32,958 nucleotides of DNA from a virus (taxonomy: Duplodnaviria > Heunggongvirae > Uroviricota > Caudoviricetes), in the IMG/VR virus record IMGVR_UViG_646862326_000003, positions 1-32,958 of that record. One strand, written 5' to 3'. The translations under genes and the position numbers were made by a program. Positions 7,793-27,546 of this stretch are shown one piece after another; position 1 is the first letter of the stretch; every line of letters begins with the position of its first letter. The notes beneath the pieces are model-generated. The model had not been told where the DNA came from. It made no database searches and was given only the letters and a program-made list of their open reading frames with translations.

Positions 7793-8524
7793 ATGGATAC
7801 TATAATCGCTTTTCTATCACTCGCTTTTTTCGTTGCTTTCTTCATCGGGTTAATCAAGCCATCACTGGTGCGAATGCCAAACCGCAAACGTGCAAGTGCG
7901 GTTTATCTCGGAGGAGGTTTTGTATTGAGCATAATTGGTTCAATACTCTATCCAACAGAAAAAAGCCAGCCAGTTGCTAAAACTGAAACATCAACCGTTG
8001 CAGAACACAAAGTCCAAAAAACATTCGAATATGGTGAAAAAACACTCAAGGAATATCGGAACGAGTCAAAGAAAACACGACACGATATTGTGAATAGTTA
8101 CATTGATTTTAAGGAAGTTCCAGCCACCGCGTCAGATGCGTTTTATGCCTGCATGAGTGAGTATACATTTACCAAAGATGATGAGTTGAAACTCGGTGAT
8201 GTTCTTGGGTGGTGCTTTAATGATTATGAAAATGACCCGAATTCACTAAACAATAAAATCAATCTTGATACATTTCAGAGTAATTTTAGTGGTTGGGATG
8301 GTTCTTATCGTCCATTGGAAAAACTAATTAAAGATAATATGAACGATGATTCATCTTATAAACATGTGTCAACGGTATATCATCTGGTTTTGAATAAAGA
8401 CCCGCATGCCATTGTGAAAACCACGTTTCGCGGAACTAATGCTTATGGAGGAGTGGTGAAACAGACGATTGCTGCGCGTGTTGATATAAAAACTGGTAAG
8501 GTGATATCAATCATAGATAATTGA
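7793..8524 (+). CDS. AT-rich cargo gene 1: membrane protein with two N-terminal transmembrane helices and a C-terminal soluble domain (243 aa)
   Basis: Start placed at the ATG preceded by AAGGA (the track start 7751 has no Shine-Dalgarno). Hydrophobic helices IIAFLSLAFFVAFFIGLI and AVYLGGGFVLSIIGSILY. Visibly AT-rich relative to the structural genes. Sits in the P2 old/tin accessory position. Followed by a strong intrinsic terminator. Confidence 0.65.
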   Translation: MDTIIAFLSLAFFVAFFIGLIKPSLVRMPNRKRASAVYLGGGFVLSIIGSILYPTEKSQPVAKTETSTVAEHKVQKTFEYGEKTLKEYRNESKKTRHDIVNSYIDFKEVPATASDAFYACMSEYTFTKDDELKLGDVLGWCFNDYENDPNSLNNKINLDTFQSNFSGWDGSYRPLEKLIKDNMNDDSSYKHVSTVYHLVLNKDPHAIVKTTFRGTNAYGGVVKQTIAARVDIKTGKVISIIDN

Positions 8525-21439: not shown

Positions 21440-24181
21440 ATGAGCACGAAATTTAAAACCGTTATCACTACTGCCGGAGCCGCAAAGCTGGCAGCCGCCA
21501 CTGTCCCCGGCGGGAAAAAAGTAAACCTGTCTGCAATGGCCGTGGGTGACGGTAATGGCAAATTGCCGGTGCCGGATGCCGGTCAGACGAAACTGGTGCA
21601 TGAGGTCTGGCGTCACGCTCTGAATAAAGTCAGCGTGGATAACAAGAATAAAAACTATATCGTGGCTGAACTGGTTGTACCGCCAGAAGTGGGCGGCTTC
21701 TGGATGCGTGAACTTGGTCTGTATGACGATGCCGGAACACTGATTGCGGTATCCAACATGGCAGAAAGCTATAAGCCAGAACTGGCTGAAGGCTCCGGAC
21801 GTGCGCAGACCTGCCGCATGGTTATTATTCTCAGCAACGTGGCGTCCGTTGAGCTGAGTATTGATGCCAGCACGGTGATGGCGACGCAGGATTACGTCGA
21901 TGACAAAATCGCAGAGCATGAGCAGTCCCGCCGCCATCCTGACGCCACGCTGACAGAAAAAGGTTTTACTCAGTTAAGCAGTGCAACAAACAGCACCAGT
22001 GAAAAGCTGGCGGCAACGCCAAAAGCGGTCAAGGCAGCAAATGACAACGCAAATTCACGTCTGGCGAAAAATCAGAACGGTGCAGATATCCAGGATAAAT
22101 CAGCTTTTCTGGACAATATTGGCGTTACCAGCCTGACGTTTATGAAACACAATGGAATGATTCCAACCACTGACAATCTTGACTCCTATGGCCCAGAAGA
22201 AAAATATCTTGGAACGTGGTCATGTCCGTCACAATCCACTGCAAAACCAGAGTCTGGTTACCCTGAAGATAAAGGCAATGGGGTTCTGGAAGTATTCAAT
22301 GCTGGTCGCTTTCACTGCACACAACGCTACACCACCCGAACCGGTAATATTTACATTCGGATGCTTGATGCAGAATGGAACCCAGCCAGTCCAACATGGA
22401 GTGCATGGAGAGTTATTACAAGCGGGACTCGACCATTAAGCACGTCAATTGACCTGAATTCTTTAGGTGGCGCGGAACACCTGGGAATATGGCGCAATAG
22501 CAGTACATCAATAGCCTCATTTGAACGTCATTTCCCGGAGGACGGGAGCTTTGGTCAGGGTATTCTGGAAGTCTTTGAAGGCGGTCTGTATGGGAGAATG
22601 CAACGTTACACCACCCGTAGTGGGACTATGTACATTCGCGGACTGACTGCCTCATGGGATGCAGAGAATCCACAATGGGAGGACTGGATTGCTGTTGGGT
22701 ATCAGTCCACGGGATGGACTTATTCAGGGGATCTTGATGACCTTTTAAAGCCTGGTATTTATAGCGTCACGAAACAGGCCACAAACGCACCAGTCACCGA
22801 CTCTAAAGATCTTGCTGTTGGCTCAATAGTTGAAGTGAAAAAACGTTGTGATATTGAATCGTATATCCAGACATATACGACAGTTTCTGCAACGGATGCC
22901 TATAAAAACCGGACATTTCAACGAACTCGTGCCAGCGGTGAAGCTGACTGGGGGGAATGGGCGGAAGTTTACAACTCAAAATCATTACTCACTAAATTAG
23001 GTGTCGGCGGTGTTACCGACAGGTTATCCAGTCTGGACTGGCAGACCTACGACTTTGTGCCGGGCAGCATGATAACTGTCAGACTCTCCGATATGACCAA
23101 TATCCCCGATGGGATGGAATGGGGCGTCATTGATACTAACCTGATAAATATCACTGTTGGCCCCAGTGAAGGTGGAGGTGTCGCCCGTTCAATGCAGGTA
23201 TGGCGCAGCACCTCAAACAAAACCAACTATCGTTTTTTTACAGTCCGCTTATATGGCAATCCTGGGGAGCGTAGCTTCAATATTCGTCGGCTACCAATTA
23301 TCGACGAAGCCCAGACATGGGAGGCAAAACAGACATTCAGTGCAGGCCTCTCTGGTGAACTGTCCGGCAATGCGGCGACAGCAACAAAGCTGAAAACAGC
23401 CCGTAAAATTAATAACGTTTCGTTTGATGGAACATCAGATATTAACCTGACGCCGAAAAATATTGGTGCATTTGCTTCAGGAAAAACAGGAGACACCGTT
23501 GCGAATGATAAAGCCGTTGGATGGAACTGGAGTAGCGGAGCCTATAACGCAACTACTGGTGGGGCATCAACGTTAATTCTTCATTTTAATATCGGTGAAG
23601 GAAGTTGTCCCGCAGCCCAGTTCCGCGTTAATTATAAGAACGGCGGTATTTTTTATCGTTCTGCTCGTGATGGTTACGGATTCGAGGCTGACTGGTCTGA
23701 GTTTTATACCACAACGCGAAAACCTACAGCGGGAGATGTCGGTGCACTGTCGTTATCTGGTGGTCAATTGAATGGTGCACTGGGCATCGGAACATCCAGT
23801 GCTCTTGGCGGTAATTCGATTGTTTTGGGTGATAATGACACGGGCTTTAAACAAAATGGTGATGGTAATCTGGATGTTTATGCTAATAGCGTCCATGTTA
23901 TGCGCTTTGTCTCCGGAAGCATTCAAAGTAATAAAACCATAAATATTACGGGGCGTGTTAATCCTTCGGATTACGGTAACTTTGATTCCCGCTATGTGAG
24001 AGATGTCAGACTTGGCACTCGTGTTGTTCAGACCATGCAGAAAGGGGTGATGTATGAGAAAGCAGGGCACGTAATTACAGGGCTTGGTATTGTCGGTGAA
24101 GTCGATGGTGATGACCCCGCAGTATTCAGACCAATACAAAAATACATCAATGGCACATGGTATAACGTTGCACAGGTGTAA
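21440..24181 (+). CDS. H: Tail fibre protein gpH, expanded variant (913 aa)
   Basis: P2-like N-terminus (MSTKFKTVITTAGAAKLAAA) and typical fibre C-terminus, with a longer middle region containing internal tandem repeats. Confidence 0.88.
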   Translation: MSTKFKTVITTAGAAKLAAATVPGGKKVNLSAMAVGDGNGKLPVPDAGQTKLVHEVWRHALNKVSVDNKNKNYIVAELVVPPEVGGFWMRELGLYDDAGTLIAVSNMAESYKPELAEGSGRAQTCRMVIILSNVASVELSIDASTVMATQDYVDDKIAEHEQSRRHPDATLTEKGFTQLSSATNSTSEKLAATPKAVKAANDNANSRLAKNQNGADIQDKSAFLDNIGVTSLTFMKHNGMIPTTDNLDSYGPEEKYLGTWSCPSQSTAKPESGYPEDKGNGVLEVFNAGRFHCTQRYTTRTGNIYIRMLDAEWNPASPTWSAWRVITSGTRPLSTSIDLNSLGGAEHLGIWRNSSTSIASFERHFPEDGSFGQGILEVFEGGLYGRMQRYTTRSGTMYIRGLTASWDAENPQWEDWIAVGYQSTGWTYSGDLDDLLKPGIYSVTKQATNAPVTDSKDLAVGSIVEVKKRCDIESYIQTYTTVSATDAYKNRTFQRTRASGEADWGEWAEVYNSKSLLTKLGVGGVTDRLSSLDWQTYDFVPGSMITVRLSDMTNIPDGMEWGVIDTNLINITVGPSEGGGVARSMQVWRSTSNKTNYRFFTVRLYGNPGERSFNIRRLPIIDEAQTWEAKQTFSAGLSGELSGNAATATKLKTARKINNVSFDGTSDINLTPKNIGAFASGKTGDTVANDKAVGWNWSSGAYNATTGGASTLILHFNIGEGSCPAAQFRVNYKNGGIFYRSARDGYGFEADWSEFYTTTRKPTAGDVGALSLSGGQLNGALGIGTSSALGGNSIVLGDNDTGFKQNGDGNLDVYANSVHVMRFVSGSIQSNKTINITGRVNPSDYGNFDSRYVRDVRLGTRVVQTMQKGVMYEKAGHVITGLGIVGEVDGDDPAVFRPIQKYINGTWYNVAQV

Positions 24182-24184
24182 TTT

Positions 24185-24712
24185 ATGCAGCATTTAAAAA
24201 ATATTACTGCGGGTAATCCAAAAACTGTTGCCCAATATCAACTGACAAAAAATTTTGATGTTATCTGGTTATGGTCCGAAGAGGGAAAAAACTGGTATGA
24301 GGAAGTAAGTAATTTTCAGGAAGACACGATAAAGATTGTTTACGACGAGAATAATATAATTGTCGGCATCACCAGAGATGCTTCAACGCTTAACCCTGAA
24401 GGTTTTAGCGTTGTCGAGGTTCCTGATATTACCGCCAACCGACGTGCTGATGACTCAGGTAAATGGATGTTTAAGGATGGTGCTGTGATTAAGCGGATTT
24501 ATACGGCAGACGAACAGCTGCAACTGGCGGAATTACAGAAGTCAGCTTTGCTTTCCGAAGCTGAAACTATCATTCAGCCACTGGAACGCTCTGTCAGACT
24601 GAATATGGCAACAGATGAGGAGCGTAGCCGACTGGAAGCATGGGAACGCTACAGTGTTCTGGTCAGCCGTGTGGATCCTGCAAATCCTGAATGGCCGGAA
24701 ATGCCGCAATAA
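24185..24712 (+). CDS. G: Tail fibre assembly chaperone gpG (175 aa)
   Basis: [40 protein letters not shown] matches P2 G as recalled; immediately follows H. Confidence 0.88.
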
Positions 24713-25074
24713 GTTGTATGATCTCTGGAGTGAGCTAACGTATCTATAGCACAGAGTAAAGCCTAATCTGACAGTCTGCTCTGTGCTAGGAGCGGACTGA
24801 CCTGCTCCCCGATGATTAATACACAGCTATGCTAGTAATGTCCGTAGATCGCTGTGTGTTGCATCCATCGGTTGAACTCACAGTCCAAACCAGACTGTCA
24901 GCTTTGATTAGATTCTACCTACTCAACCTGTCAGATAAGGTCTGAGCTAATACATCTAATATATGGCTTTGTGCAGGGGACGGCTATCGCGAACGTTAGG
25001 CCAGGTATCTGAATACGCACAGTTCACTTGGTTGTACTTCTTGCACTGATCTGCTATCCCGCACAGCTATTTAT

Positions 25075-25123
25075 AGGTAATCTTCAGTGTATAATCTGCC
25101 AACTTATGGAAGCTTGTACAACA
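25075..25123 (+). promoter_or_regulatory. Candidate promoter -10 (TATAAT, 25080-25085) and Shine-Dalgarno AGGAG for the 280-aa cargo gene
   Basis: Perfect TATAAT about 40 nt upstream of the ATG; AGGAG (25113-25117) 6 nt before the ATG at 25124. The -35 element is weak. Confidence 0.4.
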
Positions 25124-25133
25124 GGAGAAATAT

Positions 25134-25976
25134 ATGAAAAAAGAATTGTTTGGACGTTGCCCGTTTGATCTTGACGAAGATGTAAAAAAAATAGCCGCGA
25201 TAAATAAATATATCCATGCAAAATTTGAGGAGCATAAAAATAAAATAGACAACCTAAAGGGTGTGGAACAAAAATTGATGGTCTTACAGTACTTTAATGT
25301 ACTGAATGAACTTAGTAATCAGGCTATCTCTTCTTTGAATATAGGAGCCTTTTCAGCATCGGAAGTATTAGCTAGGGTTATAATAGAACAGGCTGCCAAT
25401 CAATTTTATATAGCAATAGATGATGGCGAAAATGCACAAGCATTACTCAAGGCTAGTAAGAAATTAGTTCATAGTAATGGAAAACGGTGGCTGGAGTGTT
25501 TAAAATCCAAAGGAATGACTAATCCAGCAGCAAATGAAAGGATTCGCATGGGAAAAGAACTAACTGATCTATTTAATAGATTGTGGCCAAATACACCTGA
25601 ATATCCAGGAACCAGAAAACTTTTTGAATTAATTGGCTGGGAAACACACTATCATGCCCATTACGTTCCCCTTTGTGATTCAATACATACATTCTCTGAT
25701 GATATGGTAAATATAGTATCTCTATATAATGCAATCCAAAGTGATGAAACTACTGCTATCGAATTCATTCTTGCAGTTAAACAAGAAAATAAACGGCTGG
25801 CAATTTATAATTTTGTAATTGCTACGGCCCTTCGGTGTGAGGCCTTAGTAAATGTATTTAACTCTTTAGGTTATCAGGATATTATAACAGAAATGACACC
25901 AACAATAGATACAGTCAACCAGACTATAATTCGATATGATGATTTTGATCATTCCAGAATTGATGATTGTCAATAA
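25134..25976 (+). CDS. AT-rich cargo gene at the Z/fun position between G and FI: soluble protein of unknown function (280 aa)
   Basis: Coordinates as given in the ORF track; by my base count the ATG falls about 10 nt upstream, so the exact start needs checking against the sequence. A 60-nt sample at 25201-25260 is 25% GC. No transmembrane segment or recognisable catalytic motif. Sits between G and FI where P2 carries Z/fun. Confidence 0.7.
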   Translation: MKKELFGRCPFDLDEDVKKIAAINKYIHAKFEEHKNKIDNLKGVEQKLMVLQYFNVLNELSNQAISSLNIGAFSASEVLARVIIEQAANQFYIAIDDGENAQALLKASKKLVHSNGKRWLECLKSKGMTNPAANERIRMGKELTDLFNRLWPNTPEYPGTRKLFELIGWETHYHAHYVPLCDSIHTFSDDMVNIVSLYNAIQSDETTAIEFILAVKQENKRLAIYNFVIATALRCEALVNVFNSLGYQDIITEMTPTIDTVNQTIIRYDDFDHSRIDDCQ

Positions 25977-26082
25977 TTAATTGACAGAATACGTACATGC
26001 GCAACAACTAGTGATAGTTGACTTATTTTCGCTCTTGAGAGACAACCATACTCAAATCTCCCACATTGCAGGAGATTTGAAT

Positions 26083-26190
26083 ATGAAAACATCACCGTGG
26101 AATAAAGACCGTACCATCGGTCAAAAAAGGCCACTTCAGATATCTCATATCTGGGGGATCCGGATTAGACTTGAGTTGGAAGGTAAATAA
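26083..26190 (+). CDS. Small basic ORF (35 aa) with hairpin-sequestered Shine-Dalgarno; may be a gene remnant
   Basis: ATG 26083 with GGAGA 7 nt upstream. The Shine-Dalgarno is the 3' arm of a perfect 10-bp inverted repeat (26052-26061 / 26071-26080). The track's 69-aa version starts at a TTG. Confidence 0.3.
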   Translation: MKTSPWNKDRTIGQKRPLQISHIWGIRIRLELEGK

Positions 26191-26222
26191 ATTGTCAGTC
26201 GGAAAATAAGTGAGTACAAATC

Positions 26223-26250
26223 AGGGCAGGTGAGCGAATTGCCCGCCTTT
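26223..26250 (+). terminator. Possible weak intrinsic terminator after the Z/fun-locus genes
   Basis: Short stem GGGCA (26223-26227) / TGCCC (26239-26243) followed by a T-rich tract (26247-26255). Weak. Confidence 0.3.
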
Positions 26251-26261
26251 TCTTTACCGGT

Positions 26262-26285
26262 GGTTGTGCTGTCGATTAGCCAACC
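26262..26285 (+). promoter_or_regulatory. Candidate Ogr-dependent late promoter element upstream of FI (dyad GGTTG-N14-CAACC)
   Basis: Partial dyad about 70-95 bp upstream of the FI ATG, the spacing expected for a P2 late-promoter activator site. Not verified. Confidence 0.35.
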
Positions 26286-26355
26286 GGGACAAATAGCCTG
26301 ACATCTCCGGCACAACTGAAAATACCACTCACCCATTAACCACGGAGTTAAACGG

Positions 26356-27546
26356 ATGAGCGACTATCATCATGGCGTGCAGGTGCTGGAGATTAACGAC
26401 GGCACCCGCGTCATTTCCACCGTATCCACCGCCATTGTCGGCATGGTCTGCACGGCCAGCGATGCGGATGCGGAAATCTTCCCCCTCAATAAACCGGTGC
26501 TGATCACCAATGTGCAGAGCGCAATTGCAAAGGCCGGTAAAAAAGGCACGCTGGCGGCATCGTTGCAGGCCATCGCTGACCAGTCAAAACCGGTCACCGT
26601 TGTCGTGCGCGTGGAAGACGGAACCGGCGACGACGAAGAAACGAAACTCGCGCAGACCGTTTCCAATATTATCGGCACCACTGACGAAAACGGTCAGTAC
26701 ACCGGACTGAAAGCCCTGCTGGCGGCGGAGTCGGTAACCGGTGTTAAACCGCGCATTCTCGGTGTGCCGGGACTGGACACCAAAGAGGTGGCTGTTGCAC
26801 TGGCATCAGTCTGTCAGAAGCTGCGCGCTTTCGGGTATATCAGCGCATGGGGCTGTAAAACCATTTCCGAGGTGAAAGCCTACCGTCAGAATTTCAGCCA
26901 GCGTGAGCTGATGGTCATCTGGCCGGATTTCCTCGCATGGGATACGGTCACCAGTACCACCGCCACCGCGTATGCTACCGCCCGTGCACTGGGCTTGCGC
27001 GCTAAAATCGACCAGGAGCAGGGCTGGCATAAAACACTGTCCAACGTCGGGGTGAACGGTGTTACCGGCATCAGCGCATCTGTATTCTGGGATTTGCAGG
27101 AGTCCGGCACTGATGCTGACCTGCTTAACGAGTCAGGCGTCACAACGCTGATTCGCCGTGATGGTTTCCGCTTCTGGGGTAACCGTACCTGCTCTGATGA
27201 CCCGCTGTTCCTCTTTGAAAACTACACCCGCACCGCGCAGGTGCTGGCCGACACGATGGCTGAGGCGCACATGTGGGCGGTGGACAAGCCCATCACCGCA
27301 ACGCTGATTCGCGACATCGTTGACGGCATCAATGCCAAATTCCGTGAGCTGAAAACAAACGGCTATATCGTGGATGCGACCTGCTGGTTCAGCGAAGAAT
27401 CCAACGATGCGGAAACCCTCAAGGCCGGAAAACTGTATATCGACTACGACTATACACCGGTGCCTCCTCTCGAAAACCTGACCCTGCGCCAGCGTATTAC
27501 CGATAAATACCTGGCAAATCTGGTCACCTCGGTTAACAGCAATTAA
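26356..27546 (+). CDS. FI: Contractile tail sheath protein gpFI (396 aa)
   Basis: MSDYHHGVQVLEINDGTRVISTVSTAIVGMVCTASDADAE matches P2 FI as recalled; size 396 aa. Confidence 0.92.
   Translation: MSDYHHGVQVLEINDGTRVISTVSTAIVGMVCTASDADAEIFPLNKPVLITNVQSAIAKAGKKGTLAASLQAIADQSKPVTVVVRVEDGTGDDEETKLAQTVSNIIGTTDENGQYTGLKALLAAESVTGVKPRILGVPGLDTKEVAVALASVCQKLRAFGYISAWGCKTISEVKAYRQNFSQRELMVIWPDFLAWDTVTSTTATAYATARALGLRAKIDQEQGWHKTLSNVGVNGVTGISASVFWDLQESGTDADLLNESGVTTLIRRDGFRFWGNRTCSDDPLFLFENYTRTAQVLADTMAEAHMWAVDKPITATLIRDIVDGINAKFRELKTNGYIVDATCWFSEESNDAETLKAGKLYIDYDYTPVPPLENLTLRQRITDKYLANLVTSVNSN

Follow-up and report, generated by a model that had tools for sequence, protein, structure and literature searches.

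The DNA analysed here (hereafter the window) is a 32,958-nt stretch of a P2-like prophage of Escherichia coli, and it is 100% identical to the chromosome of E. coli MS7163 over the region studied. We focused on the 421-bp spacer (24713–25133) that separates the TAA stop codon (24710–24712) of the tail-fibre assembly gene G (24185–24712) from the ATG at 25134 of a cargo gene (25134–25976, + strand), which encodes a 280-amino-acid DUF5677 protein. The tail fibre gene H (21440–24181) lies upstream of G, and the tail sheath gene FI (26356–27546) lies beyond the cargo. Its position is that of Z/fun in phage P2, and Z/fun is one of the two classic variable loci in P2-like phages. This locus carries anti-phage genes (Nilsson 2004, as cited in PMC9122126), and its cargo turnover has so far been ascribed to an unidentified site-specific recombinase. 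Most of the spacer is present in ~55 E. coli genomes, with at least 99% identity in 35–37 of these. Our data suggest, with a probability of roughly 80%, that the P2 Z/fun hotspot is the fossil of a non-autonomous cargo transposon derived from an insertion sequence (IS) of the IS481 family.

From 5′ to 3′, the spacer consists of a left-type (L) end, a short filler, a second end of the right type (R′) split by an IS30-family relic, and the leader of the DUF5677 gene. The cargo gene is followed by a fragment of a recombinase gene, a remnant of the P2 right end and a terminator-like hairpin.

Repeats of the spacer

The initial annotation, which was made from the letters of the sequence, set the outer limits of this region correctly, and no protein-coding frame accounts for the spacer, as it had stated. 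It also described a perfect 10-bp hairpin and an 11-bp long-range inverted repeat. Both exist, but each had been placed 10 nt too low: the hairpin arms TAGCACAGAG and CTCTGTGCTA lie at 24747–24756 and 24779–24788, and the long-range repeat is formed by CTGACAGTCTG at 24768–24778 and CAGACTGTCAG at 24891–24901, extended by CTAAT (24763) and ATTAG (24907) as described. Two pairs of direct repeats, TGAGCTAA at 24731 and 24943 and CACAGCTAT at 24822 and 25062, are likewise present with the same 10-nt offset. When the 421 nt were shuffled 1000 times with dinucleotides preserved, 2.8% of the shuffles contained a perfect inverted repeat of at least 11 nt and 0.8% contained at least three 10-mer inverted matches, as observed in the spacer, whereas the 8-mer and 9-mer direct repeats were equalled or surpassed in 28–29%. 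Only the inverted repeats therefore exceed chance. The long-range repeat extends beyond its 11 nt and belongs to a ~90-nt similarity, a relationship that had been overlooked.

The left end follows gene G

The L-type end (24715–24800, − strand) starts directly after G, with its terminus TGTA at 24715–24718 and a core CTGACAG at 24768–24774. It corresponds to the ‘left inverted repeat’ annotated in the proviral Z-region of GenBank AJ512676–AJ512683 (Nilsson et al.). Window 24683–24799 is 91–93% identical over 115–117 nt to the left repeats of P2-EC58 and P2-EC46 (AJ512683 and AJ512680), and the first 85 nt of the spacer are 87–93% identical to the annotated left inverted repeats of the P2-EC isolates. 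A search of phage records with the spacer gave matches limited to its first ~85 nt (87–92% identity, 72 P2-like records), and an nhmmer profile of the ends matched 24706–24800 with E = 8e-21. The partner repeat upstream of FI is present but truncated (26188–26218).

The 10-bp perfect hairpin (24747–24788, + strand; TAGCACAGAG, 22 nt, CTCTGTGCTA; −18.6 kcal/mol, z = −2.6) is an internal palindrome of L-type ends and encloses the core. Across 16 L-type ends from several genera, 85.6% of the cells of the stem are paired and the inner eight pairs are nearly always kept. One A–T to G–C exchange distinguishes the stem of the window from that of EC58, while covariation in the 16 ends, a check proposed in the initial annotation, was not above shuffled controls (53–78 of 500). 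On these data, a selected DNA or RNA structure is indistinguishable from a conserved palindromic protein site. The hairpin was also considered as the terminator of G and rejected, as GGAGCGGACUGACC follows it without a U run and the operon terminator aligns 3′ of the locus.

Right end, target duplication and empty site

On the far side of the cargo, the outer ~31 nt of the P2 right end remain at 26188–26218 (+ strand; AAATTGTCAGTCGGAAAATAAGTGAGTACA), whereas the inner ~60 nt are deleted. The right inverted repeats of EC58, EC46 and P2 are homologous to the window from 26188 onwards, and window 26188–26385 continues the annotated right repeat and its flank towards FI. Outside the two termini lie the copies of a decayed 7-bp target-site duplication, AATAAGT at 24708–24714 (+ strand), which contains the G TAA stop codon, and AATCAGG at 26219–26225 (+ strand), which matches the left copy at 5/7 positions.

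To represent the empty site, the window flanks 24515–24714 and 26219–26450 were artificially joined and searched against phage genomes. Yersinia phage P37 matched end to end across this joint with 90.5% identity, and in phage 186 and Salmonella phage FSL SP-004 G and FI are also adjacent. The comparison with cargo-free P2 relatives that the initial annotation had proposed thus yields an empty site in all three phages, with a single AATAA.. at the insertion point. The joint in P37 reads CAATAA-ACAC-AAGGCGGGC...UUUUUC, that is, the G stop codon followed directly by a hairpin and a U tract, which corresponds to the terminator t45 annotated in phage 186. In the window, the terminator-like hairpin and UUUUCUUU of the V–G late operon are found at 26223–26257 (+ strand), where they align with t45 of 186 and with the P37 hairpin. 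Because the stop codon and the terminator are adjacent in P37 and apart in the window, the element was inserted between them.

As judged from these alignments, the V–G late-operon terminator is now displaced to the far side of the Z locus, and late transcripts from the G operon probably read through the whole locus on the + strand until they reach it. With a terminator-like hairpin 3′ of the whole Z locus, the cargo gene, which is on the same strand, is predicted to share late lytic transcripts with the tail-fibre genes.

Paired ends in Enterobacterales

An alignment revealed that both P2 repeats (left and right), window 24872–24960, a Klebsiella variicola plasmid and an E. coli chromosome share a ~90-nt element. 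Copies were found by a pattern scan of one genome per species and then by a profile search, and plasmid searches added more; 18-mer pattern hits outside full-length copies were at the level of chance. Full-length copies are present at ~25 loci of Enterobacterales from at least 12 genera, including Erwinia, Pantoea, Kosakonia, Klebsiella, Enterobacter, Lelliottia, Citrobacter, Yersinia, Serratia, Morganella, Xenorhabdus, Pectobacterium and Rouxiella, and also on plasmids. The 11-bp long-range repeat is the most conserved core of the element, GACTGTCAG, which appears once in L and once, inverted, in R′. An alignment of 39 copies resolved two types: the L type reads GGCACAGAGCGGACTGTCAGATTAGG..CTCTGTGCC and contains the 10-bp hairpin, and the R type reads GCTCAAAGCAGACTGTCAGATTTGATTG. 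Each end spans ~95 nt, with an IS-like outer part of ~30 nt (TGTATTAGCTCAGAC.TGATCTGACAG) and a family-specific inner part of ~65 nt that holds the invariant core. A 5-bp stem around the core of right-type ends was also considered and dropped, as by eye it is not maintained on the alignment.

At 11 loci, an L-type and an R-type copy are arranged as an inverted pair, 0.7–6 kb apart, on either side of variable cargo: a DUF2971 protein, an FRG-domain protein, a ClC channel, LprI/DUF1311, an acyltransferase, or GrpB with DUF4440. Ten of these pairs have no homologue of P2 G, FI or FII nearby, and in the remaining one (L036) distant FI/FII (sheath/tube) homologues lie 5′ of the pair. The 7 nt outside the TACA termini are perfectly duplicated (7/7) in nine of the 11 pairs, compared to matches of 1–3/7 for the next 7 nt. 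The duplicated heptamers vary between insertions and fit NNTNANN, and they therefore point to the staggered cuts of a transposase and not to the fixed crossover site of a recombinase. No cognate (IS481-family) transposase was seen in the 11 pairs and the P2 loci in open reading frame (ORF) lists and annotation, in which not every ORF was domain-scanned. An autonomous element was sought among the pairs in the genome and plasmid collections and none was found, all pairs being 0.7–6 kb without a recognised cognate transposase.

Two of the cargo genes match candidate defence systems of PADLOC, namely the DUF2971 gene of L035 (2183–3193; PDC-S31, 2e-51) and the FRG-domain gene of L012 (3873–4769; PDC-S15, 2e-52), whereas the ClC channel, LprI/DUF1311 and acyltransferase cargo is not obviously defensive. 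On a Salmonella IncFII plasmid (L053, 3171–6674), an L/R element with the duplication AATAACG is located in the leading region, between anti-restriction/DUF1380 genes and ssb, and contains an acyltransferase gene and a secondary IS66 insertion. Nearly identical right-type ends occur in E. coli AZ147 (L008, ~2982–3094), Enterobacter vonholyi (L040, ~5595–5707) and Pantoea sp. 1.19 (L021, ~7753–7863), together with an identical 15 nt of outer flank (GCTAACTGGATGTTA); the element there seems to ride on a larger unit common to several genera.

An IS481-family relative of the ends

Short plasmid matches to the outer 30–36 nt of the ends led to an IS481-family IS (NCBIfam NF033577, 4.5e-86), whose relatives are named ISSod13 and ISVvu4 by PGAP. 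An intact copy on an Alteromonas plasmid (L061) runs from TGAATTAGTCTCGAC... to ...GAGCTAGTACA and is flanked by a perfect 7-bp duplication, GCTTAAC. An intact 1201-bp copy on the chromosome of E. coli CFSAN018748 (L064, 1501–2701) runs from TGTATTAGTCGCGAC... to ...GAGCTAATACA between perfect duplications of ATTAAGG. When the terminal 30 nt were compared with the repeats of the E. coli IS, R-type ends agreed at 24–27 positions and L-type ends at 21–25, and R′ of the window agreed at 27/30 with the right terminal repeat.

Copies covering at least 80% of this IS were found in 77 of 5426 complete E. coli genomes. The gene ylbG, annotated as ‘helix-turn-helix domain-containing protein’, represents the first ~473 nt of the 1201-bp IS, and partial copies are present in 3600 of the 5426 genomes.

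A second end and an IS30-family relic within the spacer

R′ (24837–24954) is opposite in orientation to L and is interrupted by 30 nt left from an earlier insertion of an IS30-family IS. Its proximal (inner) 16 nt (24837–24852, + strand; AATGTCCGtagatCGC) were delimited by comparison with an intact counterpart in Pectobacterium (L015), where GTCCGCTCCTCGC is followed by the IS. In the relic itself (24853–24882, + strand; ISCfr4-like), the first 4 nt of the left IS repeat run directly into the last ~29 nt of the right one. At the junction, both IS ends share TGTG as a 4-nt microhomology, and nearly the whole IS has therefore been deleted. The intact IS30-family IS in L015 (2425–3660) is inserted at the equivalent point of a right-type end, where GTCCGCTCCTCGC precedes it, GCTCAAAGCAG follows it and the 2-bp duplication is GC. 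It carries a transposase gene (NF033563, 4.5e-86) and terminal repeats TGTGAGTTCAACGG.. and ..CCATCGGTTGAACTCACA, and its last 29 nt are identical to window 24854–24882. At this position of right-type ends, an ISCfr4-like IS is intact in L015 and present as relics in L007, L035, L022, the window and E. coli E2348/69; in L020 (6113–6137), such an IS or relic lies at the corresponding position of one L-type end. The recurrence of these insertions suggests that this IS has a target specificity for the inner part of the ends.

The distal part of R′ (24883–24954, + strand) contains the core CAGACTGTCAG at 24891–24901, a second TGTCAG at 24929–24934 and the terminus TACA at 24951–24954, and its nhmmer match spans 24872–24964 (E = 2e-20). 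The 7 nt outside this terminus (TCTAATA, 24955–24961, + strand) fit NNTNANN but differ from the AATAAGT that flanks L. L and R′ are therefore not a cognate pair, and the possibility that together they form an ‘empty’ element was rejected.

Between L and R′ lies a 36-nt filler (24801–24836, + strand), which belongs to the imported module described below and is shared with E2348/69. It pairs with the IS30 relic to form a 19–21-bp hairpin at 24809–24871, the strongest local hairpin of the spacer (−24.4 kcal/mol, z = −3.7), which the initial annotation had missed. Window 24798–24842 (45 nt; compare L006, 2999–3043) is 93% identical to a stretch 3′ of a RES-domain toxin gene that is found on more than 900 plasmids, mostly of Klebsiella, where an IS3-family insertion cuts the stretch off.

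The composition of these hairpins bears on the proposal that the spacer encodes a structured RNA of antitoxin-like or regulatory type, which would act on the DUF5677 gene without being translated. The + strand does fold better than its shuffles (z = −2.9; − strand, z = −1.8), as do the two local hairpins, and the region lies 5′ of the displaced operon terminator and is thus probably transcribed; the A–T to G–C exchange in the 10-bp stem also speaks for an RNA. However, a search of Rfam with 24000–26800 at E-values up to 10 returned only noise (best E-values 6.2 and 6.4, far below the gathering scores), and the promoter and terminator scan called nothing within 24713–25133 that could bracket a small transcript. 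The covariation at the level of the shuffles also speaks against an RNA. Every paired segment traces to a transposon end or an IS relic, such sequences being found beside unrelated genes in many genera, and the L and R′ ends have separate histories and were joined only in the lineage of the window. We therefore regard an RNA gene as extremely unlikely, and the spacer as very probably a mosaic of mobile-element ends.

The imported DUF5677 module

A lambdoid prophage of E. coli E2348/69 contains a counterpart of window 24797–26187 at 90% identity, and there the DUF5677 gene precedes a recombinase gene, longer than in the window but decayed, and an AAA ATPase gene. The same set is also present in a tRNA-Ser island of another strain, and the occurrence of the module in a P2-like prophage, a lambdoid prophage and this island shows that it moves between unrelated contexts. 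In the window, the module begins at the inner edge of the P2 left repeat and breaks off within the recombinase gene, at a junction with the outer 31 nt of the P2 right repeat. A degenerate L-type end was detected just 5′ of the shared module in E2348/69 (local alignment score 44 versus 16.8 ± 2.8 for shuffles; nhmmer E = 0.056), and the donor therefore probably had a nearly empty L–R′ element inserted 5′ of the DUF5677 gene. The present cargo would then have entered, probably, by a crossover within the left ends or close beside them and an illegitimate join of the recombinase gene to the P2 right end. The initial annotation had offered a recombination scar at the cargo boundary as the last of three options. 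This comes closest, as the repeats are the ends that delimit the Z/fun cargo site, except that the second copy arrived with the present cargo.

The cargo protein (RefSeq WP_000711882.1) matches Pfam PF18928 with 5.3e-10 and has no match in PADLOC or NCBIfam; in the literature searched, DUF5677 is named only in passing as a defence candidate. Its 172-nt upstream region (24962–25133, + strand) includes a candidate −10 box TATAAT at 25090–25095 and a Shine–Dalgarno sequence AGGAG at 25123–25127. Beyond close relatives, this leader is found only with the DUF5677 gene, in loci of the E2348/69 type (~85% identity), where TATAAT and AGGAG are conserved. The TATAAT is a candidate promoter only, as it has no good −35 box and the promoter scan made no call. 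Regulator binding sites had also been proposed, in which case the inverted repeats would be operators for a regulator of the cargo gene. The repeats do lie 5′ of the gene and on the same strand as its probable promoter, but 180–420 nt separate them from the ATG. The L-end copy is part of the P2 backbone irrespective of cargo, the same ends flank unrelated genes of either orientation at other loci in many genera, and the DUF5677 module contains no regulator gene. Such a role is very unlikely on these grounds.

Downstream of the cargo gene, a fragment of ~45 codons from the N-terminus of a small tyrosine recombinase remains at 26035–26190 (+ strand; a RefSeq ‘integrase, incomplete’ pseudogene), and a 19-pair hairpin (26046–26086) overlaps its start. 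The gene is longer but frameshifted in E2348/69, Z1323PEC0010 and 2013C-4974, where the AAA ATPase gene is next to it, and the DUF5677, recombinase and ATPase genes seem to travel together.

This fragment could be the remnant of an enzyme that swaps Z/fun cassettes at the repeats, in agreement with the site-specific recombination reportedly proposed by Nilsson et al. 2004 for Z-locus exchange (according to a review). The longer decayed copy behind the same cargo in E2348/69 would fit such a role, and so would the inner edge common to all elements and their invariant, near-palindromic core. However, the recombinase gene sits outside the L/R′ pair, and its N-terminus gave no tblastn match in the 43 loci of the genome scan, with matches confined to the window, its MS7163 twin and E2348/69; the link between the ends and the neighbouring recombinase was dropped on this result. 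A fixed crossover core would not give flanking heptamers that vary between insertions and are duplicated, and the termini match the repeats of an IS481-family IS. An attachment site would have the same crossover core at both junctions of every insertion and a cognate recombinase nearby, and this arrangement was not found. We consider a tyrosine recombinase acting at these repeats to be unlikely.

Origin of the Z/fun hotspot

The interpretation of the Z/fun hotspot as a fossil IS481-derived cargo transposon is built on direct observations: the ends are homologous, they form pairs of distinct L and R types, 7-bp duplications at NNTNANN flank the elements and the IS alike, and the empty site exists. 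In this scenario, an old transposase-less cargo transposon would have landed 3′ of the G stop codon, ahead of the G-operon terminator, and thereby founded the Z/fun cargo site. A DDE transposase of the IS481 family may move such elements in trans, and the conserved ends may also act as homology anchors for the exchange of cargo among P2-like phages, plasmids and chromosomes. The copies in the window would be immobile fossils, given that the P2 ends have diverged, the right end is reduced to 31 nt and R′ is interrupted.

Several observations weigh against a transposon origin. P2's own ends agree with the repeats of the E. coli IS at only 16–18 of 30 positions, and the duplication flanking the P2 element in the window is retained at 5/7. 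Among the paired elements, the duplication of L055 is perfect only with a 1-nt slip and L033 has none. Similarity of the cargo elements to the IS stops at ~30 nt and leaves out the inner ~65 nt with the most conserved core and the hairpin, and the change from end to cargo falls at the same inner edge in all elements, which simple transposition fails to explain. The favourable folding of the + strand and the probable transcription of the region also count on this side. Finally, mobilization in trans is something that we infer, because no transposition was observed and no transposase adjoins any of the cargo elements.

A broader proposal is tentative, and we hold it to be somewhat less probable than its negation. 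The ~95-nt ends may define an undescribed and still active family of non-autonomous cargo transposons in Enterobacterales, moved in trans by IS481-family transposases. Its members would have founded the P2 Z/fun hotspot and would still shuttle single-gene cargo between phages, plasmid leading regions and chromosomal islands, including the candidate anti-phage genes DUF2971/PDC-S31, FRG/PDC-S15 and fun. The inner 65-nt module, with its GACTGTCAG core and left-end hairpin, might have a second function such as cargo loading or single-strand recognition.

The IS481-derived reading of the Z-locus repeats, with the 7-bp duplications and the empty site, appears to be new: searches of the literature on IS481 and cassettes, on the names of the ISs and on the end sequences themselves returned no prior description, within a searchable literature that did not cover the original 2004 paper. 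If true, the hotspot would go back to a single old insertion between G and its terminator, and the enzyme to test would be named, an IS481-family transposase. The ends would then offer a search handle for single-gene cargo cassettes, some with candidate defence genes, on plasmids and chromosomes of Enterobacterales. The locus is also a warning for annotation, as ‘structured’ intergenic DNA next to phage cargo can be stacked transposon scars and not RNA genes.

Comparison with known systems

Among the closest known relatives of the ends are the IS481-family ISs of the ISSod13/ISVvu4 group. The terminal ~30 nt match (TGTATTAGCTCAGACCTGATCTGACAG), both have 5′-TGTA...TACA-3′ termini with a 7-bp duplication at NNTNANN, and the left and right repeats of the IS differ from each other as L-type and R-type ends do (CTGACAC versus CTGACAG). 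In contrast to the IS, the cargo elements have no transposase, their ends are ~95 nt long, and they enclose 0.7–6 kb of unrelated genes. The relic within R′ resembles the ISCfr4-like IS30-family IS of L015 in its position in a right-type end, but the window keeps only the 30-nt scar and the transposase gene is gone.

A second comparison is with mobile insertion cassettes as generally understood, such as MIC231 of Bacillus cereus and the qnrS2 cassette of Aeromonas, which are miniature inverted-repeat transposable elements (MITEs) when empty. They share with the present elements IS-like terminal repeats, a target duplication of the parental length, the lack of a transposase and passenger genes between the ends. 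The family described here differs in that it derives from the IS481 family, its ends are long and differentiated, and the element in the window is resident in a phage late operon, where its site became a cargo hotspot. The definition used is in part that of PMC5444012.

Finally, the P2 Z-region repeats (Nilsson, Karlsson and Haggard-Ljungquist 2004; GenBank AJ512676–AJ512685) include the L end, at the same place after G. The window differs from them in that its right repeat lacks the inner ~60 nt and a third copy lies inside the cargo region. While the published reading, according to the review, is site-specific recombination, the present data point to transposon ends.

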